DNA from: Candidatus Saccharimonadales bacterium
GTDB lineage: Bacteria; Patescibacteriota; Saccharimonadia; Saccharimonadales; EFPC-124
Reading direction: 5' to 3'
Assembly: GCA_035457485.1 (NCBI GenBank)
Contig: DATIBO010000006.1
Span: 626,659-690,658 of the forward strand
DNA: 64,000 bases
Shown in pieces: positions 5,517 to 49,767 of the stretch. Position 1 is the first letter of the stretch. The number at the start of each line of letters is the position of its first letter. The notes under the pieces are model-generated. The model saw only the letters and a program-made list of their open reading frames with translations. It searched no databases and was not told the origin of the DNA. Made by a program: the position numbers and the translations under genes.

Positions 5517-5545
5517 TTGACTTACACACAATATTCCTGTATATT
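5517..5545 (+). promoter_or_regulatory. Sigma-70-type promoter of the rplJL operon
   Basis: TTGACT (5517-5522), 17-nt spacer ending in TG, then TATATT (5540-5545). Confidence 0.55.
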
Positions 5546-5551
5546 TAAGAG

Positions 5552-5727
5552 GAACATTGCCACAGACAGTAGCTGCCCACAAAGCTTAATCCGCTACCGA
5601 GGAATGACACAAAAATCATTTTTACGTTTTAAAGTCTTTGGTAATGCGAGAATCAAAGACTTTTTTGTTTCTCAAGCATTTTAACAATCTGGCCGATCAC
5701 AAATAAAATAACAGGAGTTTAACGACT
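5552..5727 (+). promoter_or_regulatory. Candidate L10 leader with terminator-like attenuator
   Basis: About 175 nt of leader before rplJ. Hairpin AAAGTCTTTG (5631-5640) / CAAAGACTTT (5654-5663) runs into TTTTTTGTTT. Confidence 0.4.
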
Positions 5728-32440: not shown

Positions 32441-33919
32441 ATGACCAGAGCTGCCGTAGTATTTTTATTTGTATTTTTAAGTTTGGCTTTAACTGAACCA
32501 GCGACCGCACAATCAGAGCCCAGTCTTTTAATTAGCGAGTTTCAAACTGGTAGCGATAAAGTTGGTGAACGACCCGCGAGCTGCCTAGAAAGCGAATACG
32601 ACGCCGGCAAATTAGAGTTCGTGGAGCTTTATAATCCAAGCGATTACGCGCTTGATCTAACAGGAATAAAATTGGAATTCGTGACCGAGTCTGGTCTCAC
32701 AGTGCGCCACGTGGCTACCTTACAAGGCCAGGTCCAGGCGAAAAGTTTATTTTTAATAACCTACAAATGCTACCTGCAAGATTTGGCGGATATGTTTTTT
32801 AACGGGTCAACTCAAAAGGATATTTTTCCTAAAACCAGTGGTGGATATCTAAGGTTGGTTGATCAAAGTGGGTCACTAATAGATCAAGTTAGTTGGGCTA
32901 AAGCAACCGCAATTAGCGGATGGTGGCACGAGCCAAAAGCGATTAGCCACGACTACTCTATAAACAGGGTTTTTAGCAACAACTCTTTTAGCACCCAAAT
33001 CACACCCACCACACCAAAAGCTGCGTTCGCTCAAAATAATCCTCAGACCGAGCCAGAAGAAGAACCTGAGCCAGAACCATCCCCAGAAACTACAGAGCCG
33101 GAGACAGAAGCTAATAATCTTTGCGATGGTATAGTTTTGAGCGAGATCCTGCCCAACCCCACGGGTGAAGATTCGGGCGCAGAGTTCATTGAAATACACA
33201 ACCCAACAGACAAGCCAATCCATTTACTAGGCTGTGCTCTAAAACTCGAAAACAGCACAAAGCAGTTTAATTTGCCCGATCTTCAAATTGCTCCAGATCA
33301 GTATATAGCTTTTTATAACTCGGAGACAAAACTTTCGTTAACAAACTCAAATAGTGTAACTGTTTGGTTGGTTACACAAACCAGCGAACAATCAGTAAAG
33401 TATGCGGATAACTTGGGTTCGGACATCTCGTGGTCGTTTATTGACGGTGCTTGGAAACAAACGCAAACGCCGACGCCAAATCACCCGAACAAGCTACTAG
33501 TCCTAGCGGAAGCCACAGAGCAACATTTAGCCCAATGCGAACCCGGTAAAATACGTAACCCCGAGACCAATCGCTGCAAAAGCACTCAATCACAACCTGT
33601 AATTACGCCATGCGCTCCTGGACAAGAACGCAACTCGAACACTAACAGATGCAGAACAATTGCGGCCGCCAGCACGCAGCCAAAACCTTGCCCAGAAGGC
33701 CAGGAAAGAAACACGGATACAAACCGCTGTCGTAAGATTTTAGGAGCCAGCACAAACTTACCCAGCGTTAAAGACATTCCTTCGGTGCCATCACAAAATT
33801 CAACAGTGTTTTGGGTAATTGGTGCACTATTTGCCGCGGGCGTAGTTTACTGCATTTATGAGTGGAGGCAAACGGTTGCAAGAGCATTAAATAATCTTAA
33901 AACAAGGCTAAGTAAATAA
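32441..33919 (+). CDS. Secreted, C-terminally anchored protein with two lamin-tail (LTD) domains and three Cys-bracketed repeats
   Basis: Signal peptide. LTD signatures ..LLISEF..EFVELYNPSDYALDLTG.. and ..VLSEILPNP..AEFIEIHNPTDKPIHL... Three C-x2-G-x2-RN-x2-TNRC repeats, then a C-terminal TM. Confidence 0.75.
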   Translation: MTRAAVVFLFVFLSLALTEPATAQSEPSLLISEFQTGSDKVGERPASCLESEYDAGKLEFVELYNPSDYALDLTGIKLEFVTESGLTVRHVATLQGQVQAKSLFLITYKCYLQDLADMFFNGSTQKDIFPKTSGGYLRLVDQSGSLIDQVSWAKATAISGWWHEPKAISHDYSINRVFSNNSFSTQITPTTPKAAFAQNNPQTEPEEEPEPEPSPETTEPETEANNLCDGIVLSEILPNPTGEDSGAEFIEIHNPTDKPIHLLGCALKLENSTKQFNLPDLQIAPDQYIAFYNSETKLSLTNSNSVTVWLVTQTSEQSVKYADNLGSDISWSFIDGAWKQTQTPTPNHPNKLLVLAEATEQHLAQCEPGKIRNPETNRCKSTQSQPVITPCAPGQERNSNTNRCRTIAAASTQPKPCPEGQERNTDTNRCRKILGASTNLPSVKDIPSVPSQNSTVFWVIGALFAAGVVYCIYEWRQTVARALNNLKTRLSK

Positions 33920-33953: not shown

Positions 33954-35858
33954 TTAAGTAGCTCTAAAGGCCATAACTTTATAAACCTCAGATGGAGGAT
34001 CGCAACCCAAAATACCTAAAACATTCACCCACGAAATTGCCAAGGTGTTAGCTGCACTCACTCTGGCTCCAATCATTCCACAACCGTTAGTTAACGAGGG
34101 TTTGTTTACAATAACCGTGTCGTCTGTGGTCAATCCATTTACGGTAAATGTTTGCTCGCTAGTGGATGCTGCTGGAACGTTTGCAGGATTAATAGTCGGC
34201 GCATAGTACCTAATCTGTGTAATCGCAGTTCCCGAAGCACCCACAGTCAACCCAGAAGAGACTTCTGCGTTTGTCGTCTGTGTTCTATTGGCAGAAGTGT
34301 CTACATTAAACACGTTAGTGCTGGATGAGTTTTGAACAGTGAAAGCGTTGGTTCCGTTGGTATCGTTCCTGAAAATCGTATTATCACCAGTAAATACTTG
34401 AGAATCTCGACTAAGAAGCGCAACGTTACTACTCAGGCGTGCATCCGCTAAAGTTCCGCTAGAAATATTGCTCGCATTTAAGCTAGTTAATGCGGATCCA
34501 TTGAGGGCGGGGAGCAAACCAGATCCATCGAGCTGAACAAGTTGTCCGGCGGCGTTAAAGCTATTTCCCTGCAATGTCACATTAGTGCTCAACCTTGCGT
34601 CGCCAACAGTACCCGTTGCCAAACTAGAAGCATTAAGATTAGTAAGGTTCTCACCGGAGATTACAGGCAAAACCCCGCCCGCGGTGGTTTGAACCAATTG
34701 GCTCGTGCCGTTAAAAGTATTGCCCTGCGTAGTAACATTTGAGCTCAGCCTAGAATCATTCAAGGTACCACTGCTAATATTACTAGCATTCAATCCCGTT
34801 AGACTACTGCCAACCCCAACAAAATTACCGGCGATTACTGTTCCGCTAACATTTATGTGACCAGTTTGAGGGGTGCCGGGCGTAACGGCTTGCAGATCAA
34901 CACAGTCAGTACACCCAACAGGTAGGTTAGTAAGATTGGCGCCCGAAACCGCAGGTAATGCACCTGAGCCATCTAGCTGCACAAGCTGATTGACACCATT
35001 AAATGTGTTGCCTTGAACGGTCACGGTTGAGTTTAATCTTAAATTAGACAAAGTTCCTGTGGTGATCTGAGATGCATTAATACTGGTCAAGTTTGCGCCC
35101 GAAAGAACTGGCAATTCGCCGCTACCATTTGTTTGCACCAGCTGACTATTGCCGTTGAAGTTGTTGCCCTGTAATGTAACACTCGAACTAAGCAATCCAT
35201 TGGCGACAGTACCTACTAAATTACCCGCGCTCAAAGAAGTTAAGCTTGAACCGTTTCCTTGAAAGCTGCTAGCAACTACTCCATTTACATAAACATAGCC
35301 AGATTCCTGAGTGGTGGGCGAAACTTGGAGCGAGACACATGAGCCATTGGGACAAGAGGCTACGCCGTTTGTTCCATCTTGGCCAGCGGGTCCTTGCGCG
35401 CCAGCTACACCCTGAACACCTTGGATTCCTTGAGGTCCTTGAATTCCGGCAATTCCATCGGTTCCATCGGTTCCATCCAACCCGTCATCTCCATCCTCGC
35501 CATCTACTCCATTGATGCCATCCAGCCCTGGTACTCCCTGTGAACCCGCCGGGCCGATCGCTAAAGTTGCATCTTGATTACTGTTGCCCAGTTCCTGAAC
35601 TTGCAAAGTCGGATCATCCAACGTGGTCGTATCTAGCTGGGCAACCTGTTCGATACTTGCAGGATTGTTCGAGACTTGCTCTGCCAGATTTTTATAAACG
35701 CTAAAAAGCACATCCATACTGGTAGATTTGCGGTAAACATCAAACGTCAGTAGCAAAATTGCCACCACTACTGCCGCACTGAGCAAGCCAAAAAGAACGT
35801 TTTTACGCCTTTTTGCCGCTGATTTGCTACTGATATTGGATTCGCTCGTTGAGCGCAT
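33954..35858 (-). CDS. Membrane-anchored collagen-like fibre protein with tail-fibre-type repeats
   Basis: N-terminal TM. About 20 G-X-Y triplets (..GPAGSQGVPGLDGINGVDGEDGDDGLDGTDGTDG..). Four ..QGNxFNGxxQLVQ..SG.LP..SG.NLT.LNAS.. repeats and a C-terminal globular domain. Confidence 0.75.
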   Translation of the reverse strand: MRSTSESNISSKSAAKRRKNVLFGLLSAAVVVAILLLTFDVYRKSTSMDVLFSVYKNLAEQVSNNPASIEQVAQLDTTTLDDPTLQVQELGNSNQDATLAIGPAGSQGVPGLDGINGVDGEDGDDGLDGTDGTDGIAGIQGPQGIQGVQGVAGAQGPAGQDGTNGVASCPNGSCVSLQVSPTTQESGYVYVNGVVASSFQGNGSSLTSLSAGNLVGTVANGLLSSSVTLQGNNFNGNSQLVQTNGSGELPVLSGANLTSINASQITTGTLSNLRLNSTVTVQGNTFNGVNQLVQLDGSGALPAVSGANLTNLPVGCTDCVDLQAVTPGTPQTGHINVSGTVIAGNFVGVGSSLTGLNASNISSGTLNDSRLSSNVTTQGNTFNGTSQLVQTTAGGVLPVISGENLTNLNASSLATGTVGDARLSTNVTLQGNSFNAAGQLVQLDGSGLLPALNGSALTSLNASNISSGTLADARLSSNVALLSRDSQVFTGDNTIFRNDTNGTNAFTVQNSSSTNVFNVDTSANRTQTTNAEVSSGLTVGASGTAITQIRYYAPTINPANVPAASTSEQTFTVNGLTTDDTVIVNKPSLTNGCGMIGARVSAANTLAISWVNVLGILGCDPPSEVYKVMAFRAT

Positions 35859-35921: not shown

Positions 35922-36941
35922 CTATTTTTCGTCAGATTCTGGCTCTAAAATCTTTTTACTTTTAATCTCGTAACGCCTACCCGTCATACTAGACTCAACG
36001 TAGTCATCGTTTAATAGATTCACAAATTTATTAAGGTCTTTAACATCCATGATGATAATGGCGCCCGAATCATCAGTCATAAGCTCAACACCGAGTTCTT
36101 CGGCGTGATTCAAGAGATCTTCTTGCTTCACAGACTGCGGATCAATTTTTTGCAATTTGTTGATCAGCGTTTTACTAGCTTTAACCATGGTCTGAAGATC
36201 AAGCTCGTCTGCAAAGCTTAAAGTGAAGTTGGCGTTAATTTCATCGACTTTCTTTTCGGCAATCGCATTCTTTTTAGCATTATAATTAAATAAACGCTCA
36301 AGCTTGCTTTGATTAAAAACATAGACGTCCTGCTCGAGTAATAGAATCTGGTTATCAGCCGGAATCCGCAACGCGGCGCCCGGATCAAGTGCTTCAAAAG
36401 TTTGTGCACCGATAGTCCAACCGCCAATGCCTTTAACAACATTAGCCGCGGAGAGCGACTTAATTACGTAAAAAGATTTCTCCATTTCGGGATGACTGCA
36501 ACGTGCGATCAAGCCGCGCATACGACGCAAGTCGTGATCGTCTTCGTTGAACATTTCCATTTCATGTTCTTGGCCACCAAGCCAGCGCATCGCCTCAACC
36601 ATCTTTTCGATATTATCGAGCTGAGTTCTTTGTAAAACGTTATCTTCCTCTTCTGCCTCTTCGAAACCGCGCACGACTAAGCCTTCGCCTGCGCCAGTCA
36701 TAACAAACTCTAAAATATTGTCTAAGAGTAGGGGAATCAACTGTTTGCCTACCTCAGGTTTATGCTGAGTCCGATACAAAACATTGTTTTTACTAAGCAA
36801 GAACAACTCAATTTTTAGGTTGTCTTTGTACATAAAAAGGTTGTTAGCCCAGTTAAATATATCTGTCTGCTCACGCTCCACGGGTGCAGCATTTTCAGTA
36901 GTTTCGGTTGTCGCGCTCGGCGTGATAGATGTTTGTTCCAT
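35922..36941 (-). CDS. Hypothetical cytoplasmic protein (339 aa); possible DUF4868/KwaB-like, unverified
   Basis: Clean ORF with GAAGGG SD. The family suggestion rests only on length and overall pattern recalled from memory. No KwaA-like membrane partner is adjacent. Confidence 0.55.
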   Translation of the reverse strand: MEQTSITPSATTETTENAAPVEREQTDIFNWANNLFMYKDNLKIELFLLSKNNVLYRTQHKPEVGKQLIPLLLDNILEFVMTGAGEGLVVRGFEEAEEEDNVLQRTQLDNIEKMVEAMRWLGGQEHEMEMFNEDDHDLRRMRGLIARCSHPEMEKSFYVIKSLSAANVVKGIGGWTIGAQTFEALDPGAALRIPADNQILLLEQDVYVFNQSKLERLFNYNAKKNAIAEKKVDEINANFTLSFADELDLQTMVKASKTLINKLQKIDPQSVKQEDLLNHAEELGVELMTDDSGAIIIMDVKDLNKFVNLLNDDYVESSMTGRRYEIKSKKILEPESDEK

Positions 36942-37092: not shown

Positions 37093-38913
37093 ATGATTGT
37101 AAGGAACCTGCTAAAAAGAGTGGGCGTTATTGTGGTTGCAGTAACTATAGTGGCAAGCAATTTTGCCTTCGAGACTCCAGTCAGGGCGCTTGCAACTACT
37201 GATAGCGTAGACGAAATCCACTTTTCTTATGGCGAAAATGCAGGCGAAGTGATTTTTAACTGGCGCGGATCTGAAACCGCCTTTTTTTATGGTCTAGACT
37301 CCAACTACGGTCAACAAGCCACAGCCTATCAATCGGCAATTAGCCCATGGGACACAACCGGTCCATTCTACGAAGTTAAAATTAGCGGCCTAAATGACAA
37401 CACCGAGTATCATTATAAAATCGGCGAAAGCGGCCTAGACCACGCCTTTAAAACACGGTCAACTGGTGATTTTAGCTGGGTGGATGTGGGCGACACAGTG
37501 AGCTCTCACTGCTTTAGCTATATGCCAGCCATGCACCAACTAATTACTAATCAGCAACCAAATGTCGTTACGCATGGTGGTGATATATCGGTTCTGGATG
37601 GTTGTGGCGTAGAAGCAGTTAACTCATACTACACCGATCAAGAAGTTTGGTCGCATTTTGCGGCTTTTCAACCCGCTTGGGGTAACCATGAGTACGCCGA
37701 GGCCAAGCCCGAGGCACCTGCAGGAACTCCACGCGATAGCCTCGCAAACTACAAAGGCCGAAGTTACATAACAAACGCACAAACAGTACCTAACGACACC
37801 GAAACAAAGACTAGCAACCCGGGTTGTGGTGGCGATCAAGGTAGTGTCGTGAACACCTGTCTAGGCGAAGACTGGGGCTGGTTTGACAGTGGCAAGGTAA
37901 GATTTATTTCGTACCCCGAGCCGTGGCCGGGCGCGATCGAAGATTGGAAAGTCAAAGCCGATATACTAATGCAGCAAGCTCAAAGCGATGCAAACGTCGA
38001 CTTCATAATCACTTACGGGCACCGCCCTCCTTACACAAACTCAACCGAGGGCCCAAACCTAACAGTTTGTGCAGCCATTGATTACTTGGCCCAAAAATAC
38101 AGTCCGCGCGCCGACAATCAAGGCGGGAAATATATCTTAAATGTTGGGCACCATGCGCACGGCTTAGAAGCTTACGGCAAAGTTAACGGCCTAATGCACG
38201 TGTTGAGTGCAGCTGGCGGTCAAGGCTTTACACCAACCGCTAACACAACGCCTCCATCCGAATTCCGTGTGCGCAGGTTAGGAATTTTAGCCGGCAATTA
38301 TAACGCCCAAAATGGAACATTAGGAATTAGGTTTGTGTGCGGACCAGATTTTCTATGGATCAAGGATGTGTGCGAGTATGGCAGTACAATTTGGAGCATG
38401 CAATTCACGAAATCCACAGCCCCAGTACCAACCCCCACAGAATGGGTTAGCAATGTTGGCGTAGAAACCAACCTAACAGGCTGGACGGGTAAATACGGCA
38501 GTAGCAACTACGTAAATATTGACCGTTCCACTGAGCAAGCTCACAGCGGCAGCGCGTCCGTAAAAGTTTCGGCCAGCACTGGCGCAAACAATTTATCCAG
38601 TGGCTTTAACGACAGCCCTAAAATAATTGCCAGCACTACCGCAAACATCGGATACACTCAAAGCGTATGGATAAAACCCGGGTACGTTGGCCAAAAAATC
38701 ACATTACGTCTACGTGAGTGGCGACCAAACTGGGCCATGGCAGGTGAGGTGAGCCAAACTATTACTGCAAGTAGTACTGATTGGCAGCGGGTTAGCCAGA
38801 CATATACCACAAAAGAGTCCGGCAATAGCTTAGCTTACATTGTTTACGCCAACGCAATCTCTGCAGGGCAATACTTTTACGTCGACGATCTTTCCTTAAC
38901 TTCGCCAAATTAA
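37093..38913 (+). CDS. Secreted purple-acid-phosphatase-like metallophosphoesterase with C-terminal carbohydrate-binding (CBM4/9-like) module
   Basis: Signal/TM. ..GDTVSSH.., ..GGDIS.., ..GNHEY.., ..GHRPPY.., ..GHHAHG... C-terminal ..AHSGSASVKV.. ..YFYVDDLSL... Confidence 0.7.
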   Translation: MIVRNLLKRVGVIVVAVTIVASNFAFETPVRALATTDSVDEIHFSYGENAGEVIFNWRGSETAFFYGLDSNYGQQATAYQSAISPWDTTGPFYEVKISGLNDNTEYHYKIGESGLDHAFKTRSTGDFSWVDVGDTVSSHCFSYMPAMHQLITNQQPNVVTHGGDISVLDGCGVEAVNSYYTDQEVWSHFAAFQPAWGNHEYAEAKPEAPAGTPRDSLANYKGRSYITNAQTVPNDTETKTSNPGCGGDQGSVVNTCLGEDWGWFDSGKVRFISYPEPWPGAIEDWKVKADILMQQAQSDANVDFIITYGHRPPYTNSTEGPNLTVCAAIDYLAQKYSPRADNQGGKYILNVGHHAHGLEAYGKVNGLMHVLSAAGGQGFTPTANTTPPSEFRVRRLGILAGNYNAQNGTLGIRFVCGPDFLWIKDVCEYGSTIWSMQFTKSTAPVPTPTEWVSNVGVETNLTGWTGKYGSSNYVNIDRSTEQAHSGSASVKVSASTGANNLSSGFNDSPKIIASTTANIGYTQSVWIKPGYVGQKITLRLREWRPNWAMAGEVSQTITASSTDWQRVSQTYTTKESGNSLAYIVYANAISAGQYFYVDDLSLTSPN

Positions 38914-38944
38914 CAAGTTACGAACGGTGGGTTATAATTAGCTT

Positions 38945-40045
38945 ATGCTTATTGCTCAAGCTCAAGATTTGCGACTTTACTTGTTTGCAGCCATATTTGG
39001 TTCTATGGCGGTCGGCTCTGCTGCCGGTTTCTTGTTGGCGGATTACCGACCCGGATTTAGGTTTACAGTGAGTCTGGCTTTAGTAACCTCATTGCTAAGT
39101 GTGTTCGCAATCCCGTTTTTCGTACGCACCATAAAACTTTTTACAGATGAAGTTAAAAAAGCATACGTCATGTTGTGTGTTGGGCTCGGAATCTTTGCAG
39201 TCGCGCAAATTCAGATTCCAGTGGTTAATATTTTAAATGCAGTTTTCTGGCTAGAATCTGGTGGTGTTGCAACAATTTACGTTTTTAGCGCAGTCTTCGT
39301 GTTGCTGGCTATGCGAAAATTCGCAAAAATCCTTGGCGTAAAATCAGTTTGGTCATCTGTTACTTTAGGTGTTGCAGTGGCAATCTCAACTAGTCTTATG
39401 ATCTCATTTTTGCCACATGTAAGCACCGGCGCTAGCGAATTGGTGTTTGACGTTTTCCAGTCCGTTACTGTTTGTAACGTGGTTTTTGTATTTTTTGCTG
39501 GCATGCTGGGCTTGCAGATTCTGCCAAAAATGTCGGTTGCTTACAAAAGCGCGGTAGAGTGGCTAACAGTTGCATTTTATATTTTAGCTTTTGGCGGACT
39601 TCACTTTTTAATTGTTAGGTTGTTTTTAACCGAAGCCGATTGGTATTTAGATTTCAGTCTTACCATTATTCCGTTCACAGCTGGAGCTTTTGCGTTTTTA
39701 ATCGCCGGTTACAAAGCGAGTTTGCTAAATGTAATCAATCAGCCTCAACAAAGTAATCAAGTTTCAGAAATCGAAATGGTAACTTTTTTAGCCTCCTTCG
39801 CTTCGCAACCATCTAAGATCGAATCAGTTTTAGACGACATAAGCTCTGTGTCTGCTCAAGTCAAACCTGGAGAAAAATTGTCTGCAGCGCAGATCGCCGT
39901 GCTTAAAAATGCATACTTAAAACTGCAAAATTACTTAACCACAAGTGACCCCATACGTGTTTATTCAAAACAAGAATTGCAAGGCATAATTAAGGCTAAA
40001 TTCGGCAATAAAGCATTTGATAATTTTAATTTAGGAGCAGAGTAA
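38945..40045 (+). CDS. Polytopic membrane protein with C-terminal helical soluble domain (paralog of 44694-45770)
   Basis: About 8 TM followed by a roughly 90-aa soluble tail. See the permutation finding. Confidence 0.6.
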   Translation: MLIAQAQDLRLYLFAAIFGSMAVGSAAGFLLADYRPGFRFTVSLALVTSLLSVFAIPFFVRTIKLFTDEVKKAYVMLCVGLGIFAVAQIQIPVVNILNAVFWLESGGVATIYVFSAVFVLLAMRKFAKILGVKSVWSSVTLGVAVAISTSLMISFLPHVSTGASELVFDVFQSVTVCNVVFVFFAGMLGLQILPKMSVAYKSAVEWLTVAFYILAFGGLHFLIVRLFLTEADWYLDFSLTIIPFTAGAFAFLIAGYKASLLNVINQPQQSNQVSEIEMVTFLASFASQPSKIESVLDDISSVSAQVKPGEKLSAAQIAVLKNAYLKLQNYLTTSDPIRVYSKQELQGIIKAKFGNKAFDNFNLGAE

Positions 40046-40052
40046 CTACACA

Positions 40053-41300
40053 ATGAAAACTTTAAGTACTGCGAAACCATTCTGGAAAATTCTTATAAAA
40101 ATTGTTCTTGTAGTAATTGGCTTAGTTTTAGTTTTTGCAATCGGCGTGGCGATTTTTAAAAACGCAAAAATTGCTATTTTACAGGCTCAACTTGCACCGT
40201 TTTATAAAACCGATGGATTGCCGCTTCAAGGTGAATTAGGCGAGATCGTTAGGCAAGAACCAATGGATCTACAAATTTCGGGCGGGACGGCTACACGAGT
40301 CTTATATCGAACTCAGGATTCCAACGGCAACAATACCTTTAGCTCGGGTATGATTTTCGTTCCGAACAATCAAGGGCAGAATAGGCCGATTGTAGCCTGG
40401 GCTCACGGCACATTAGGAATGGGGGAGGCATGCGCTCCAACAAGATCGCAGGATCCGATGCAGAATATTTCCTGGGTCAACCAGATGCTTGAAAACGGCT
40501 GGATTGTAACGGCAACCGATTACGCAGGACTTGGCACAGATGGAATCGAGCAGTACCTAGTTGGCGCCGGTGAAGCTCACGATGTCTTAAATAGTGTGCG
40601 TGCAGCTCGTAATTTAAGTGGATCGAACGCGGGCAACACATTTGCCGTTTGGGGCCACTCGCAAGGTGGGCACTCGTCGTTGTTTACGGGCAGCATGGCA
40701 AAAAGTTACGCACCTGAACTTAATTTAGCGGGAACAGTTGCATCCGCACCAGCTGCCGAACTTTCGGTCATGTTAGATCAGCAAGACAATAACGTTTTAG
40801 ATTGGGTCATCGGGCCAGAAATCCTAACATCTTGGCCAACTGCCAATGATCAGCTATCGGCAGATCAGCTTACCACAAAAGTGGGCGACAAAAACTATCA
40901 AAAAATAGCCGATCAATGTATTGATGATGCAACTCTGGACGGATTAATTAGGAATAGCCTGAAGCAACAGTTCTTTGCCACAAGTCCCACAGATGTCCCA
41001 GCCTGGAGTGAAATGGCTCAAGCCCAAACTGCACCAACGCTAGAGCCAAGCCAGCCCTTAATGGTGGCTGAGAGCACGACAGATTTAGTGATCGAGCCGG
41101 GAGCCACAGCACTATACATTCAACGCGCCTGCAACGCCGGTGGAAACCTAAATTCATTATGGGTTGCAAATGTTCAACATATGCAAATTCCCGAAGTAAT
41201 TTATCCTAATGTAATCGCTTGGATCAACGACCGCTTCAACAACCGACCAAATAACAATACTTGTGATCAGCAACTACCGGTCCAACCTTTAAATAACTAG
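40053..41300 (+). CDS. Secreted lipase/esterase (LIP-family-like alpha/beta hydrolase)
   Basis: N-terminal TM/signal. ..VAWAHGTLGMGEACAPT.. and nucleophile elbow ..WGHSQGGHS... Confidence 0.6.
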   Translation: MKTLSTAKPFWKILIKIVLVVIGLVLVFAIGVAIFKNAKIAILQAQLAPFYKTDGLPLQGELGEIVRQEPMDLQISGGTATRVLYRTQDSNGNNTFSSGMIFVPNNQGQNRPIVAWAHGTLGMGEACAPTRSQDPMQNISWVNQMLENGWIVTATDYAGLGTDGIEQYLVGAGEAHDVLNSVRAARNLSGSNAGNTFAVWGHSQGGHSSLFTGSMAKSYAPELNLAGTVASAPAAELSVMLDQQDNNVLDWVIGPEILTSWPTANDQLSADQLTTKVGDKNYQKIADQCIDDATLDGLIRNSLKQQFFATSPTDVPAWSEMAQAQTAPTLEPSQPLMVAESTTDLVIEPGATALYIQRACNAGGNLNSLWVANVQHMQIPEVIYPNVIAWINDRFNNRPNNNTCDQQLPVQPLNN

Positions 41301-45777: not shown

Positions 45778-46176
45778 ATGAACAGAGATATATTAGAGTT
45801 TAACAGAAATTTGCCAGCTGGTCGTCGAGAAATTTGCGACTTGCTTAGCACTGAAATCCAGAGCTTTTTTAAAGACTTGCCAGATGCTGAAAATAAATTA
45901 TGGCACGGAGCGCCGGTTTGGTTCTTAAACGGTAACCCTATTGTCGGTTATGATTCCCTAAAGAACTGCGTAAGACTTTTGTTTTGGAGCGGTCAGTCCT
46001 TTAACGAACCCAGTTTACAGCCCGAGGGCAGTTTTAAGGCGGCAGAAGTGCGTTATGAAAACTTAGACAAGATAAAAGTGGACGAGCTGGCAGCCTGGCT
46101 TAAAAAGGCAAAAGATATTCAATGGGACTATAAGAACATAGTTAAGCGCAGGGGAGTACTTGAGCGCCTCAGTTAA
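45778..46176 (+). CDS. DUF1801 (YdhG-like) domain protein
   Basis: 132 aa. ..KLWHGAPVWFLNGNPIVGY.. pattern. Confidence 0.45.
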   Translation: MNRDILEFNRNLPAGRREICDLLSTEIQSFFKDLPDAENKLWHGAPVWFLNGNPIVGYDSLKNCVRLLFWSGQSFNEPSLQPEGSFKAAEVRYENLDKIKVDELAAWLKKAKDIQWDYKNIVKRRGVLERLS

Positions 46177-46268
46177 CAACATTTACATTAAGTAAAATTA
46201 TGCTATAGTTAGTCGGTCATGGAGGAGCGCATGTTTTACGTGCGCCTGACAATCGAAATGGAGTGCAG

Positions 46269-47135
46269 ATGCCTCTCATCGAGGACATCGGGAACTGGAT
46301 CCAGGGAGCAGCGGCCACGTGCCTCGACTTCCTGGGCAAGATCCCGCGCGCTGTGTTCGGCGACGCCGTGGATTCGGAGTACGGCCGATGGGCTGCGACG
46401 CTCGTGTTCATCGCGATCGTCTCTTACGCCATCACCGGCATCCGATCGGTGTCGACGCTGTTCGTCGCCAAGTTCGACCTGGGGTTCAGCCAGGCGAAGA
46501 TCGACGACTACAACGACAAGCGCGGCGAGAACGACGAGAAGTACGTGTTCGACTGGGGCAAGGCGCGACGACAGCAGTCGCGCAGCCTGTCGTTCCTGTG
46601 GCCGGTCGGTCTGATCGCGCTGGGCAGCATGTACTACTGGGTGCGCTACGACCTCACCAGCAAGGGCTACTTCCTGCTGGCGATGGCGTGGTTCGCCTTC
46701 TACCTGCTGGTCATCAAGCCGTGGTGGATCAACACCAAGCTCCGCAGCGACCGCAACCTGGTCGACTCGGGCGTGATCACCCGCGACAAGGCGCCGTACT
46801 ACCACTTCAGCACCCGGCAGGGCATCCAGCACTACATGGGCTGGGGCCTTTACGGGCGCAAGAAGCAGCGCAGCCCGATCTTCATCGGCGGGCTCCGCTA
46901 CGTGCGATGGATCCTGGCGCCGTTCGCCTGGGTCCGCAAGCGCATGATCACGCCGTTCCTGTGGATCTGCGTCCTGGCAGCGGCCTGGATGATCACCGCT
47001 CCGCTCATCGTGTTCTGGCTGGGAACCCGTTTCGACCGGCGCCGCTACTGGCTCCGGCCGCCGTGGGCCCCGGACTACGCGATCGAACCGACGATCCACG
47101 AGTTCGTCGCCACAAGCGACAGCTCGAGCAGCTGA
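46269..47135 (+). CDS. GC-rich islet D ORF, hypothetical 4-TM membrane protein
   Basis: ATG 46269 with GGAG 5 nt upstream (the ORF track uses GTG 46263). Nearly all codons end in G/C. TM segments ..WAATLVFIAIVSYAITGI.., ..LSFLWPVGLIALGSMYYWV.., ..GYFLLAMAWFAFYLLVI.., ..FLWICVLAAAWMITAPLIVFWL... Three other long ORFs here are shadows. Confidence 0.6.
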   Translation: MPLIEDIGNWIQGAAATCLDFLGKIPRAVFGDAVDSEYGRWAATLVFIAIVSYAITGIRSVSTLFVAKFDLGFSQAKIDDYNDKRGENDEKYVFDWGKARRQQSRSLSFLWPVGLIALGSMYYWVRYDLTSKGYFLLAMAWFAFYLLVIKPWWINTKLRSDRNLVDSGVITRDKAPYYHFSTRQGIQHYMGWGLYGRKKQRSPIFIGGLRYVRWILAPFAWVRKRMITPFLWICVLAAAWMITAPLIVFWLGTRFDRRRYWLRPPWAPDYAIEPTIHEFVATSDSSSS

Positions 47136-47154
47136 TCACACTCCTCCAACAACC

Positions 47155-47190
47155 CGTGGCGGCCGAGGCACCAAGCCCTCGGCCGCCACG
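47155..47190 (+). terminator. GC-rich hairpin after the islet-D ORF (no U-tract)
   Basis: GTGGCGGCCGAGG caccaagc CCTCGGCCGCCAC: 13-14 bp, perfect. Confidence 0.5.
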
Positions 47191-47256
47191 CGGCTTCAAA
47201 GAAATTATCATTACACGCGTTTCTTTTTACGAAAGCCGATCTACTCGCTCTGCACT

Positions 47257-49767
47257 TTAATTTGAATAGCTCCGCCTAAGGTACGTTTGGTAGATTGGCG
47301 CAAATTGACACTCAGGAGTAGATTTTGCGCAAACCGAAGAATCAAAGGCAGAATATGATCTAAATATTGTAGATTTATCCGTTAACGTCTGGTCAATAAC
47401 GTTTTCGGGTTTTGATGCAACAGGGTAGCCGACATAGAACTGGGCGGCGGTCTCACCGTATTCTGATTTATACTTTTCAAAAGCTGTAGTGGCTATTTTT
47501 CCCGACTCAAGATGGTCGCTGTGATCAGGTGGCGTGGCATTTTTATCGGTTGATTGCAACCGAACAATCGAAGGAGAGTAGAATTGCATTAACCGACCAA
47601 GTGCATTCGTTAAATCATCCAGCGAGTAAACAGATTGTTTATCCACAGATTTAACAGTTGAGATGACCCCGCGATCAAGCTTAGCTAGACTTTGTTGCTC
47701 AGAAGACTTGAAACCCTGTCCATTGACATTACCATCTGGCAAGCGCATAAAAATCAAAGAAACATTCGGGTTATCTTTGCTTGTCGCGGCTCTAATAAAT
47801 TGTTGATCTCCCAGTTTTATAATATGCGTCGACCAAGATCTAGGACTCACGCCGAGCATAGTTGAATAAGCAGCTATTGCACCTTCTTCGCGCCGCAGCC
47901 AATAAAACTGGTCAGCGCCAGCATCCCCGGCGGTTAAATAAATAGTTCTTACGCAATGCCCAGATTTTATATCGTCGAACGTGGCCGGATTCATAAAAAG
48001 TAAATCATCATCTTGATGGGCTACCACTTGCAAAGTCGTTGATGCCGAGCAAAAAGCATCGTTAAAGTCACTCAATAAAATTGGCTTGATTGTAGCCGCG
48101 TCCTGTCCAACATGCGGGCCATTGGTAATTCCATTGTTATACAGCAACAGCAGCTCTTTAGGCTTATCGACCGTTCCATTAATTACCACACTTTTGCTCG
48201 GGCGACCATAAACTTCGGTAATCGTGTCGAGTCCACACGAAGGAGCGTCCGCGAGCGGGCTTTCTAACGACAGAATATACGCAAAAGAACTCTCTTTTAG
48301 ATCTTTTTGCCAATTTTTGCTCGATAGTAAATCACGCGGCTGAGTACAGTCCATAAGCGGTAAGATCGCCTGATTTTCATTGCTTAAAAGCCTGATCGGA
48401 ACAACACGCCAGTAATTGCCGACCAAAACGTCAACTTTATAAGATTTTAGTGCGCTGACAATTCTTTTATTATAAGTTGCTACTGGGTTTAACGCTTGTT
48501 GTTCACTGCGATAGGTTTTTACAGACGTAGGTAGAGCAATTATAATTCCGGCTAAGATTATAATTCCGGTTATAACTACAATTTTAGGGTTAAGCGTGCG
48601 CCGGCTCAAAACACTAGCAAGCGCCACAAAACCAGCAAAAAGAGCAATTCCTAAATATCTAAAGTCCACCGGGAAGTAGTGGTCACTTACAATATATGAT
48701 CCGATCGCTGCAACAAGCGTCCAGACTAAAATCACAGGCAATGCGTACGTTTTTGGGTCAATTTTAACTTTAAAACTACGCCAAAATACAACCGCCATTG
48801 CCCATATAGCCGCTATGAAAATTAAAAAGTTAACAATGTAACTTGCGATGTAGATCGACCCTGCGCTGCGCCAAACTTGCCCCATTATGTCAGCTAAAAT
48901 TCGTGGATCACTAGCAGGCAACACGCCAAAGTTAACAGATAAAGCCACAAAGACATAAATTACACCGCGCGCTAATTCCTTAAAGTCAGTTATAAACCCA
49001 TACGGGCTTATGCCGGTATGTGATATATCTGTAAACAACTGGAGAACCCATAAAATTATAGTGGCAACAACTATGGCCGCGACAGTTGCAAGCAGCCAGC
49101 GAATAGCGATTCGCATCATCGGCCTAGCGTGCATTACCCAGTAGCAAACCGTAGCCAAAAGCGCACCACCCAGACTTATACTTACAAAAAGACGATCACT
49201 TGCAAATAAAATTGATAGCAACACAACACCAAACCAAAAACTCGATTTTTTATAAGTTCCGCGCAAAATCAAAACAATTGACAAAATATATAGTACATAC
49301 TCAAGATTTCGGGTAGTGATCATAGCCATATTAACTGGCAAAAGTGCGCCATCGTAAGGTTGAGCAGGAACTAAAATTAGGGTAGATGCCAAGGCCAGAC
49401 AAAGCGTGCCAAAAACGAGCATGCGATTTTCGATCCTATATATAAGGTACGCCAACGCAATTACAGTTAAAAGCACACTCATTAGAGTAACCAGCAGGAA
49501 CGCAAGGTTTGTAAAACCTAAAATTTTAGCAAATAAAAACAATGGCCACTTAAATAAAAACGAATGTTGGTAAGGCACAAACGCCTCTTTAAAAGTATCT
49601 GGACTTTCAAACAGGTATGAATTAACTAGTTGATCAGCATTTTGACTATTAAGTTGCGCACCTAAACTTGCCCACAAAATTGTCGTACAAATAAGCACAG
49701 CTAAGCCACCGCCAGCATAAAGTGCTGGTAAAACAAAGTTCTTTAAAAAATTATACTTCTTGTTCAT
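47257..49767 (-). CDS. Fusion protein: polytopic GT-C-like membrane domain plus C-terminal PIG-L/LmbE-family deacetylase
   Basis: About 13 TM in the N-terminal 440 aa. C-terminal ..VVAHQDDDLLFMNP.., ..IYLTAGDAG.., ..PPDHSDH.. (PIG-L zinc motifs). Confidence 0.7.
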   Translation of the reverse strand: MNKKYNFLKNFVLPALYAGGGLAVLICTTILWASLGAQLNSQNADQLVNSYLFESPDTFKEAFVPYQHSFLFKWPLFLFAKILGFTNLAFLLVTLMSVLLTVIALAYLIYRIENRMLVFGTLCLALASTLILVPAQPYDGALLPVNMAMITTRNLEYVLYILSIVLILRGTYKKSSFWFGVVLLSILFASDRLFVSISLGGALLATVCYWVMHARPMMRIAIRWLLATVAAIVVATIILWVLQLFTDISHTGISPYGFITDFKELARGVIYVFVALSVNFGVLPASDPRILADIMGQVWRSAGSIYIASYIVNFLIFIAAIWAMAVVFWRSFKVKIDPKTYALPVILVWTLVAAIGSYIVSDHYFPVDFRYLGIALFAGFVALASVLSRRTLNPKIVVITGIIILAGIIIALPTSVKTYRSEQQALNPVATYNKRIVSALKSYKVDVLVGNYWRVVPIRLLSNENQAILPLMDCTQPRDLLSSKNWQKDLKESSFAYILSLESPLADAPSCGLDTITEVYGRPSKSVVINGTVDKPKELLLLYNNGITNGPHVGQDAATIKPILLSDFNDAFCSASTTLQVVAHQDDDLLFMNPATFDDIKSGHCVRTIYLTAGDAGADQFYWLRREEGAIAAYSTMLGVSPRSWSTHIIKLGDQQFIRAATSKDNPNVSLIFMRLPDGNVNGQGFKSSEQQSLAKLDRGVISTVKSVDKQSVYSLDDLTNALGRLMQFYSPSIVRLQSTDKNATPPDHSDHLESGKIATTAFEKYKSEYGETAAQFYVGYPVASKPENVIDQTLTDKSTIFRSYSAFDSSVCAKSTPECQFAPIYQTYLRRSYSN

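Follow-up and report, generated by a model that had tools for sequence, protein, structure and literature searches.

A membrane-anchored collagen-like protein with phage-tail-fibre modules: a plausible attachment fibre in Saccharimonadales

We analysed a 64,000-nucleotide stretch of a Candidatus Saccharimonadales genome (GenBank assembly GCA_035457485.1, contig DATIBO010000006.1, positions 626,659 to 690,658 of the forward strand; the whole stretch is called the window below), in which an open reading frame (ORF) at 33954..35858 on the minus strand codes for a 634-amino-acid (aa) protein, hereafter the fibre protein. The bacterium is a tiny one from soil and belongs to an ultrasmall group whose members live attached to other bacteria. 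The protein joins a predicted membrane anchor, a collagen-like run, a shaft of 52-aa repeats and a terminal beta-sandwich with phage relatives, and we consider it rather probable, though well short of certain, that it forms a modular, ligand-presenting fibre on the cell surface. The structural part of this reading is much firmer than the adhesin part, and as judged from its sequence the protein is a plausible candidate attachment fibre. The only existing annotation is 'collagen-like protein', given in the identical public record HSE29684.1 ('MAG TPA: collagen-like protein [Candidatus Saccharimonadales bacterium]', MAG standing for metagenome-assembled genome), which is placed on an 889-kb contig and whose protein cluster has a single member from one contig. 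Collagen-like surface fibres of bacteria are known; what appears to be new is a widespread family that unites an anchor, a collagen stalk, phage-tail-fibre modules and swapped ends. In our literature search no paper connected collagen-like or tail-fibre-like surface proteins with Saccharibacteria or Patescibacteria, and the family appears to be undescribed in the searchable literature. The gene and its parts, in the order of the protein, are as follows.

33954..35858, minus strand: complete coding sequence of the fibre protein, 634 aa plus stop, found as an ORF and identical to HSE29684.1.
35799..35858, minus strand: basic N-terminal segment, residues 1-20, with 6 K/R against 1 D/E; predicted to be cytoplasmic (positive-inside rule).
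35739..35798, minus strand: single transmembrane helix, residues 21-40, a putative uncleaved signal anchor of predicted type II (Kyte-Doolittle hydropathy and AlphaFold2, AF2).
35556..35738, minus strand: juxtamembrane stalk, residues 41-101, predicted helical; AF2 helices to residue 92, with a predicted local distance difference test score (pLDDT) of 52-76.
35358..35555, minus strand: collagen-like region, residues 102-167, with 22 uninterrupted G-X-Y triplets (sequence parse and Pfam).
35453..35477, minus strand: perfect 9-bp tandem repeat TTCCATCGG in 2.8 copies, all positions matching, coding for D-G-T-D-G-T-D-G in the collagen run.
35172..35357, minus strand: first Cys-headed block, residues 168-229 (C169-x4-C174, VSLQ...QESG; sequence parse).
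34914..35171, minus strand: shaft units 1 (52 aa, residues 230-281) and 2 (34 aa, residues 282-315, shortened by the next head; sequence parse).
34728..34913, minus strand: second Cys-headed block, residues 316-377 (C316-x2-C319, VDLQ...PQTG; sequence parse).
34416..34727, minus strand: shaft units 3 and 4, residues 378-429 and 430-481, 52 aa each (sequence parse).
34245..34415, minus strand: proximal beta module, residues 482-538, with five predicted strands at 486-528 (AF2, pLDDT 64-86).
33957..34244, minus strand: distal beta-sandwich tip, residues 539-634 (AF2, alignment and homologs).

The start codon is supported by the conservation of M1 and the region that follows it in the orthologs, by which we mean ten proteins with the same C-terminal region. 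The most hydrophobic 19-mer of the protein starts at residue 21 (Kyte-Doolittle 2.8), and the AF2 model of the full-length monomer showed a long helix at residues 15-64, with pLDDT 81-87 over residues 21-40, followed by more helices to residue 92. The basic N-terminus leads into a hydrophobic helix of 20 residues, beyond which no obvious signal-peptidase site is seen; this arrangement suggests that the helix is a signal anchor that stays uncleaved and leaves the N-terminus inside the cell. The N-terminal membrane anchor claimed in an earlier reading of this DNA (the sequence-only reading) is supported by the basic residues 1-20, the hydrophobic 19-mer and the AF2 helix. A hydrophobic N-terminal segment was also present in most family members having a collagen run. 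On inspection of the sequence a type IV pilin was rejected, as the N-terminus, MRSTSESNISSKSAAKRRKNVLFGLLSAAVVV..., has neither a G|FTLIE-type motif nor Glu5.

The same reading had counted about 20 G-X-Y triplets, and the run indeed comprises 22 without interruption. The Pfam Collagen family (PF01391) matched residues 102-160 with 37.3 bits against a cutoff of 27.2, which places the run within the family definition, and in the Pfam scan of the whole protein at E ≤1 nothing else appeared except two chance-level matches. The run is strongly acidic, with 10 D/E and 0 K/R, and proline occupies 4 of the 44 X/Y positions; Asp or Gln stands at most Y positions, a composition unusual for a stable bacterial triple helix. 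In the preceding stalk the heptad pattern is weak (13 of 18 a/d positions hydrophobic), which hints that the stalk may be a trimerising coiled coil.

Beyond the collagen run, the two-level repeat described in the sequence-only reading was present, with two Cys heads (CPNGSCVSLQ at residue 169 and CTDCVDLQ at 316), each followed by two QGNxFN units; these units start at residues 230, 282, 378 and 430 and have a period of 52 aa. C169, N171, G172 and C174 are invariant in the orthologs, and C169-x4-C174 stands directly after the last triplet. The Cys pair of the first head may be an inter-chain staple, much as some animal collagens have cystine knots at their ends. The shaft units are mutually 56-68% identical as protein and ~50-60% identical as DNA, values that mark them as old rather than recent duplications. 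Across the family, 125 units at exact 52-aa spacing were found in 55 proteins, with the consensus QGNTFNGASQLVQLtgsGxLPALSGsNLTnLNASNISSGTlaDARLSsNVTL. N-X-S/T sequons were enriched at residues 170-530 (24, compared with 13.4 +/- 3.0 when the sequence was shuffled with its composition kept). Most of the excess stems from N-L-T, N-A-S and N-V-T, which are conserved in every 52-aa unit; the pattern could be a structural Asn/Thr pattern or a set of glycosylation sites.

No Pfam, NCBIfam or PADLOC model covered the shaft or the tip, and among solved structures a phmmer search with the whole protein returned collagens only, while a profile of the double unit returned none even at E ≤10. The shaft did match two proteins of cultured Synechococcus myophages (Kyanoviridae) in tblastn searches: the 'tail fiber protein' gp051 of S-SRM01 (E 1e-8, 40%), which has the long-tail-fibre distal subunit on one side and the gp37-gp38 adhesin tip complex on the other, and the 'long tail fiber protein' gp217 of S-CREM2 (E 2e-8). 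The part common to these cyanophage fibres is the second half-unit of ~29 aa, F.G.G..LT.LNASNI.SGTL...RL....V, at 36-40% identity, and the QGNxFNG..QLVQ...G.LP half-unit is absent from the cyanophage proteins. The description of the repeats as tail-fibre-type thus holds for the second half-unit, which occurs in cyanophage tail-fibre genes, but not for the QGNxFNG..QLVQ half.

The tip is the best-conserved part of the protein, with 59-92% identity to the orthologs compared with 18-42% for the anchor and stalk. With the tip alignment as input, AF2 predicted a beta-sandwich with pLDDT >90 over ~90 residues, and the alignment contained near-invariant columns and strongly conserved motifs, among them V-A-A-N-T-T-A-E-Q-T-F-T-V-x-G-L and R-V-S-A-A-N-T-L. 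The C-terminal sequence quoted in the sequence-only reading was confirmed. C593 and C619 are invariant in the orthologs, hydrophobic residues stand there in the phage homologs, and the two cysteines may form an internal disulfide.

Used as a query, the last 165 residues retrieved 50 small proteins (94-197 aa, mostly 99-134 aa) that share 44-60% identity over the final 80-100 residues. Two small homologs of the tip lie directly downstream of a P22-type coat gene and one lies near an Sf6-type terminase; around those in proteobacterial genomes there are weak matches to P22-like virion proteins, and a 201-aa protein of the head-tail module of Ralstonia phage PQ43W has the domain at its end. In the BFVD collection of predicted viral structures, the best matches to the tip were small uncharacterised Caudovirales proteins (E 2e-9, root-mean-square deviation 0.9 A), and a search with the full-length AF2 monomer returned the same tip matches again. 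The tip fold was also found in BFVD inside large proteins named tail fibre, tailspike, pectate lyase, SGNH hydrolase, collagen triple helix repeat and Mtd N-terminal domain. An exhaustive profile search recovered 8,832 representative clusters (50% identity) at E ≤1e-3; the domain either stands alone in proteins of ~100-130 aa from phage structural modules, or closes longer beta-helix or fibre proteins at their C-terminus, or is repeated in 3-6 tandem copies. The tandem-copy proteins, for example P0171 and P0174, are 350-590 aa long, and a pectate-lyase-like beta-helix protein (P0301) carries the domain at its end. Pfam gave no match over the tip domain in the six carriers scanned, and no significant match was obtained when the tip homologs were scanned against PHROG; the domain marks a large family, of more than 8,800 clusters at 50% identity, without a Pfam model. 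The kinship with phage fibres that the sequence-only reading had proposed is supported on both counts, by the half-unit in tail-fibre genes of isolated cyanophages and by a tip that is a domain of phage structural modules.

To delimit the fibre family, we took four features together: an N-terminal hydrophobic anchor, a G-X-Y run, a C-x(2-5)-C-x(1-3)-[LR]Q head, and QGNxFN units at 52 aa. The 634-aa protein has all four. Among 8000 candidates scored, 982 relatives were found at E ≤1e-3. In a scan of species-representative genomes the repeat occurred mostly in Saccharibacteria/Saccharimonadales MAGs, with some occurrences in Elusimicrobia, Bacteroidota, Parcubacteria and others, and one MAG carried at least six loci of the family. 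The ten orthologs range over 415-885 aa, 9-25 triplets, 2-10 units and 1-3 Cys heads, and three close relatives at the same syntenic locus are 634, 795 and 832 aa long. This spread indicates that fibre length is evolutionarily labile and changes by whole triplets, 52-aa units and Cys-headed blocks. Many other family members have the same anchor, collagen run, Cys head and units but a different end domain, such as a phage tail collar (PF07484; P0031), an SO2946-like_C domain with a weak ConA-like Laminin_G_3 match (P0037), or an end in ...GFRVAR (P0058, with a precomputed PF03781 assignment), which we take to be FGE-sulfatase-like. Some relatives without anchor and collagen run resemble true phage fibres; P0007 matches Phage_fiber_C, and P0096 has a precomputed PF13884 assignment.

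From these features we infer the topology, trimer formation, disulfide staples, surface exposure and ligand binding of the following model. The basic N-terminus would lie in the cytoplasm, and one transmembrane helix would anchor each chain. The stalk and the 22 G-X-Y triplets would join three chains as a collagen triple helix, ~19 nm long if canonical (66 residues x 0.286 nm), and the two cysteines that open each shaft block would probably staple the chains. The four 52-aa units would form an extended shaft, with the number of units setting its length, and at the far end the beta module and the ~90-aa beta-sandwich would be held off the cell to bind an external ligand, most likely, given the lifestyle, a component on the surface of a host or partner bacterium. 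The length of the fibre evolves as triplets, 52-aa units and Cys-headed blocks are gained or lost in frame, with the tip nearly constant. We would place ligand binding at the tip because the chassis is common to paralogs with other ends, because the modules are common to phage receptor-binding proteins, and because cultured relatives live attached to other bacteria (PMC10633639, PMC11665869).

Several observations weigh against this model. The collagen run is short, proline-poor and purely acidic, which makes its stability uncertain, and it would probably depend on flanking trimerising elements. The AF2 monomer is of low confidence over the collagen run and the shaft (pLDDT <55 at residues 102-167), as we would expect for a single chain of an obligate oligomer. 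Matches to the tip in a Foldseek search of the PDB were marginal (the KP32gp38 depolymerase, the best, at E 0.057; the phi92 endosialidase; the R2 pyocin fibre), and its phage homologs are small uncharacterised proteins. The conserved tip fits a folding or trimerisation nucleus no less than a binding site and is the opposite of the usual pattern of phage receptor-binding proteins. Moreover, the adhesins reported to date to be essential in a cultured saccharibacterium carry VCBS, dockerin and FN3 domains (PMC10633639).

The main rival holds that the protein is a structural coat or spacer, a hair-like nap or S-layer-like palisade rather than a specific adhesin, in which the tip serves mainly as a folding and trimerisation nucleus and the fibre provides a fixed distance or a protective brush. 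The high conservation of the tip fits this rival equally well: the tip is the best-conserved part while the length is free to vary, as would suit a domain like the C-terminal domain of the spore-surface protein BclA, which promotes trimer formation (PMC10470788), and the S/T/N-rich shaft, with its excess of sequons, could bear glycans like the BclA nap. However, paralogs swap the tip for the SO2946-like_C, tail-collar or ...GFRVAR ends, which is expected of binding modules and not of a generic folding nucleus, and the tip fold recurs at the ends of phage proteins of the receptor-binding and depolymerase type. We regard a coat or spacer as a serious but unlikely explanation. Returning to the ligand-presenting fibre, a broader proposal can be put forward tentatively, as a possibility that we ourselves doubt: that a large, undescribed family of 'cellular tail fibres' in Saccharimonadales and other Patescibacteria carries phage receptor-binding modules on a membrane-anchored collagen stalk, with interchangeable tips among paralogs, and is used to recognise and hold host bacteria, so that host range would be partly written in the tips, as it is in phages.

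The sequence-only reading had drawn attention to a tandem 9-mer in the collagen part that could vary fibre length by slippage. The repeat is real and perfect at 35453-35477, with the unit GGAACCGAT, and one unit gained or lost would change the protein by one triplet in frame. No other perfect period-9 repeat of 22 nt or more exists in the window, and this one, at 25 nt, is non-random and records at least one in-frame duplication in the past. Of 11 other collagen tracts of the family that were examined, 2 also contain perfect 9-bp repeats, of 27 and 37 nt. Because it has fewer than three copies and like repeats occur in these two tracts, the 9-bp repeat is an ordinary feature of collagen-coding DNA, and the case for slippage is weak. 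Metagenome contigs were scanned with exact matches to the flanks of the 9-mer as anchors and 0-30 nt allowed between them; no second strain was found, and the source contig was not recovered either.

A contingency locus, at which frequent slippage of this repeat would vary fibre length within a population, is accordingly an improbable explanation to us. The uniqueness of the repeat in the window and the range of 9-25 triplets between orthologs speak for it, as does the strain-level triplet polymorphism known for BclA and the Legionella protein Lcl (PMC10470788, PMC6460258). Against it stand the count of only 2.8 copies, the like repeats in the other tracts, the single-member protein cluster and the contig scan that yielded no second strain; there is also no long repeat substrate, as the remainder of the collagen DNA and the 52-aa units have diverged (~50-60% nucleotide identity), and one triplet would alter the length by <1 nm. 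The idea that fibre length varies was right for orthologs at the same locus but not for the route proposed, since the differences there are mostly of whole 52-aa units, Cys-headed blocks and many triplets. The evidence, which is comparative, supports variation between species and not rapid variation within a population.

We also addressed the genomic context of the fibre gene. The neighbours scanned code for BipA, a DUF5684 protein, a GmrSD_C protein, ComEC, a Lamin Tail Domain (LTD) protein, a KwaB-like protein, a metallophosphatase, a secretory lipase and a major facilitator superfamily transporter, and no phage family matches were found among the ten ORFs neighbouring the gene. In two relatives the same order is kept: KwaB, fibre, a 223-aa ORF, LTD, ComEC, GmrSD_C and DUF5684 in L007, and a partial KwaB, fibre, LTD, ComEC and GmrSD_C in L086. 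More distant orthologs sit with housekeeping genes (sigma factors, DnaG, PolA, IF-2). Because its neighbours are cellular, their order is kept in L007 and L086 and the distant orthologs lie among housekeeping genes, we concluded that the fibre gene is a vertically inherited cellular chromosomal gene and not a prophage tail-fibre gene; a prophage origin of the locus was rejected on gene context. A scan of the 64 kb found no paralogs of the fibre gene, and promoter and terminator scans gave counts no better than those of shuffled sequence.

It is accordingly very unlikely that the protein is a virion component encoded by a phage or prophage tail-fibre gene: PHROG tail-fibre families do match and the shaft half-unit and tip do have phage relatives, but the PHROG matches cover essentially the collagen run alone, the N-terminus is a membrane anchor and not a virion-attachment domain, and the flanking genes are cellular and syntenic in relatives, with distant orthologs among housekeeping genes. 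Just as remote is a phage-defence unit in which the fibre would replace a missing KwaA as an envelope sensor or decoy, for although a gene with a full-length KwaB match (PADLOC E 1e-15; Pfam) lies 63 bp upstream on the same strand with no adjacent KwaA-like gene, and the adjacency is kept in L007 and L086, it is limited to these two closest relatives, and none of the other fetched loci of the family has a KwaB-like neighbour, the orthologs P0004, P0005, P0006 and P0009 included. A general association with KwaB was rejected on this ground, and because the adjacency is confined to the two closest relatives, the pairing looks like shared ancestry rather than functional linkage.

The remaining features of the window can be summarised briefly. 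The KwaB-like gene (Kiwa defence, DUF4868) lies at 35922-36941 on the minus strand and is full-length (Pfam 9.1e-11, PADLOC 1e-15); upstream of it the next gene runs divergently. The gene of the 492-aa LTD protein, at 32441-33919 on the plus strand, converges with the fibre gene. This protein has two Lamin Tail Domain matches and a weak TNFR-like match in Pfam, and a reading of its sequence suggests hydrophobic segments at both ends, the N-terminal one resembling a signal peptide, together with three copies of a Cys-rich repeat, C-x-PG-x-(E/I)RN-x-(E/N/D)TNRC. It adjoins ComEC, a position kept in L007 and L086, and at ~51-53% identity it is more diverged than the cytoplasmic neighbours (KwaB 71-90%, GmrSD 58-77%). 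Beyond the KwaB-like gene, a run of probable secreted or surface proteins occupies 37093-41300 on the plus strand and consists of a metallophosphatase (606 aa) that combines a purple-acid-phosphatase N-domain with a hydrophobic, signal- or anchor-like N-terminal segment, a 366-aa protein without a family match, and a protein of the secretory lipase family. The G+C content peaks at 0.53 at 46000-48000, compared with ~0.44 elsewhere, at a place where long ORFs of the two strands overlap (46236-47260); Rfam at gathering thresholds found no RNA family at 46000-48000. A ribosomal protein L10 leader (RF00557, 67.7 bits) at 5542-5676 on the plus strand is an ordinary housekeeping element.

As to how ultrasmall episymbionts recognise and hold their hosts, work on one cultured species has so far pointed to type IV pili and to a few adhesins carrying VCBS, dockerin or FN3 domains (PMC10633639). 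If the fibres described here mediate host attachment, they would provide concrete candidates for host-specificity factors in environmental Saccharimonadales, and an example of cells and phages using one toolkit of binding modules.

Among known systems, the fibre protein resembles the BclA proteins of Bacillus and C. difficile in having a collagen-like filament (trimeric in BclA) with a distal C-terminal domain, which in BclA is globular. It differs in that BclA attaches by a short N-terminal domain to BxpB of the basal layer rather than by a transmembrane helix, and in that BclA has no shaft of 52-aa repeats. The C-terminal domain of BclA has a C1q/TNF-like fold, whereas the structural neighbours of the tip are phage beta-sandwich domains and not C1q/TNF, and the Pfam scan of the fibre protein gave no BclA_C match. 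Saccharimonadales are not known to form spores. The analogy with spore-surface fibres drawn in the sequence-only reading fails, as no BclA-type C-terminal domain was detected. BclA and Lcl are both trimeric collagen-like surface proteins whose triplet number varies between strains (PMC10470788, PMC6460258); in BclA the number sets filament length (PMC10470788, citing Sylvestre 2003), and in Lcl the polymorphic number tunes binding (PMC6460258).

With the streptococcal adhesins Scl1/Scl2 and with Lcl, whose triplet numbers are polymorphic, the protein shares the character of a surface collagen-like protein, and the NCBIfam models of these proteins touch its G-X-Y run. Scored over the whole protein, however, the curated models failed widely: the Scl1/Scl2 models NF038330 and NF038329 reached 43.6 bits against 325 and 37.5 against 400, and the Lcl model NF046116 reached 37.6 against 500, with only the G-X-Y run aligned. 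Scl is anchored C-terminally by LPXTG and carries an N-terminal globular domain, whereas the polarity of the fibre protein is reversed, and inspection of its sequence found neither an LPXTG motif nor a C-terminal hydrophobic tail; its shaft and tip are unrelated to those of Scl and Lcl.

Phage tail fibres, represented by S-SRM01 gp051 and S-CREM2 gp217, share with it the ~29-aa half-unit, the modular design and exchangeable C-terminal ends. Unlike them, the fibre gene is cellular, and a membrane anchor takes the place of a virion-attachment domain. Shaft and tip modules are common to both, the gene does not lie in a phage structural module, and the overlap shows shared modules rather than membership among the phage fibres. 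The tips of phage fibres are usually their most variable part, whereas here the tip is conserved. By analogy, the same order of parts (a short cytoplasmic N-terminus, a single-pass anchor, a helical stalk, a collagen helix and a distal trimeric binding domain) is found in the animal type II transmembrane collagens XIII, XVII, XXIII and XXV, in MARCO/SR-A and in ectodysplasin A, the last having ~19 triplets followed by a TNF-type tip. These animal proteins show no sequence kinship with the fibre protein beyond G-X-Y; the fibre protein has no hydroxyproline system and its shaft and tip are unrelated to theirs, so that the likeness is one of convergent architecture.

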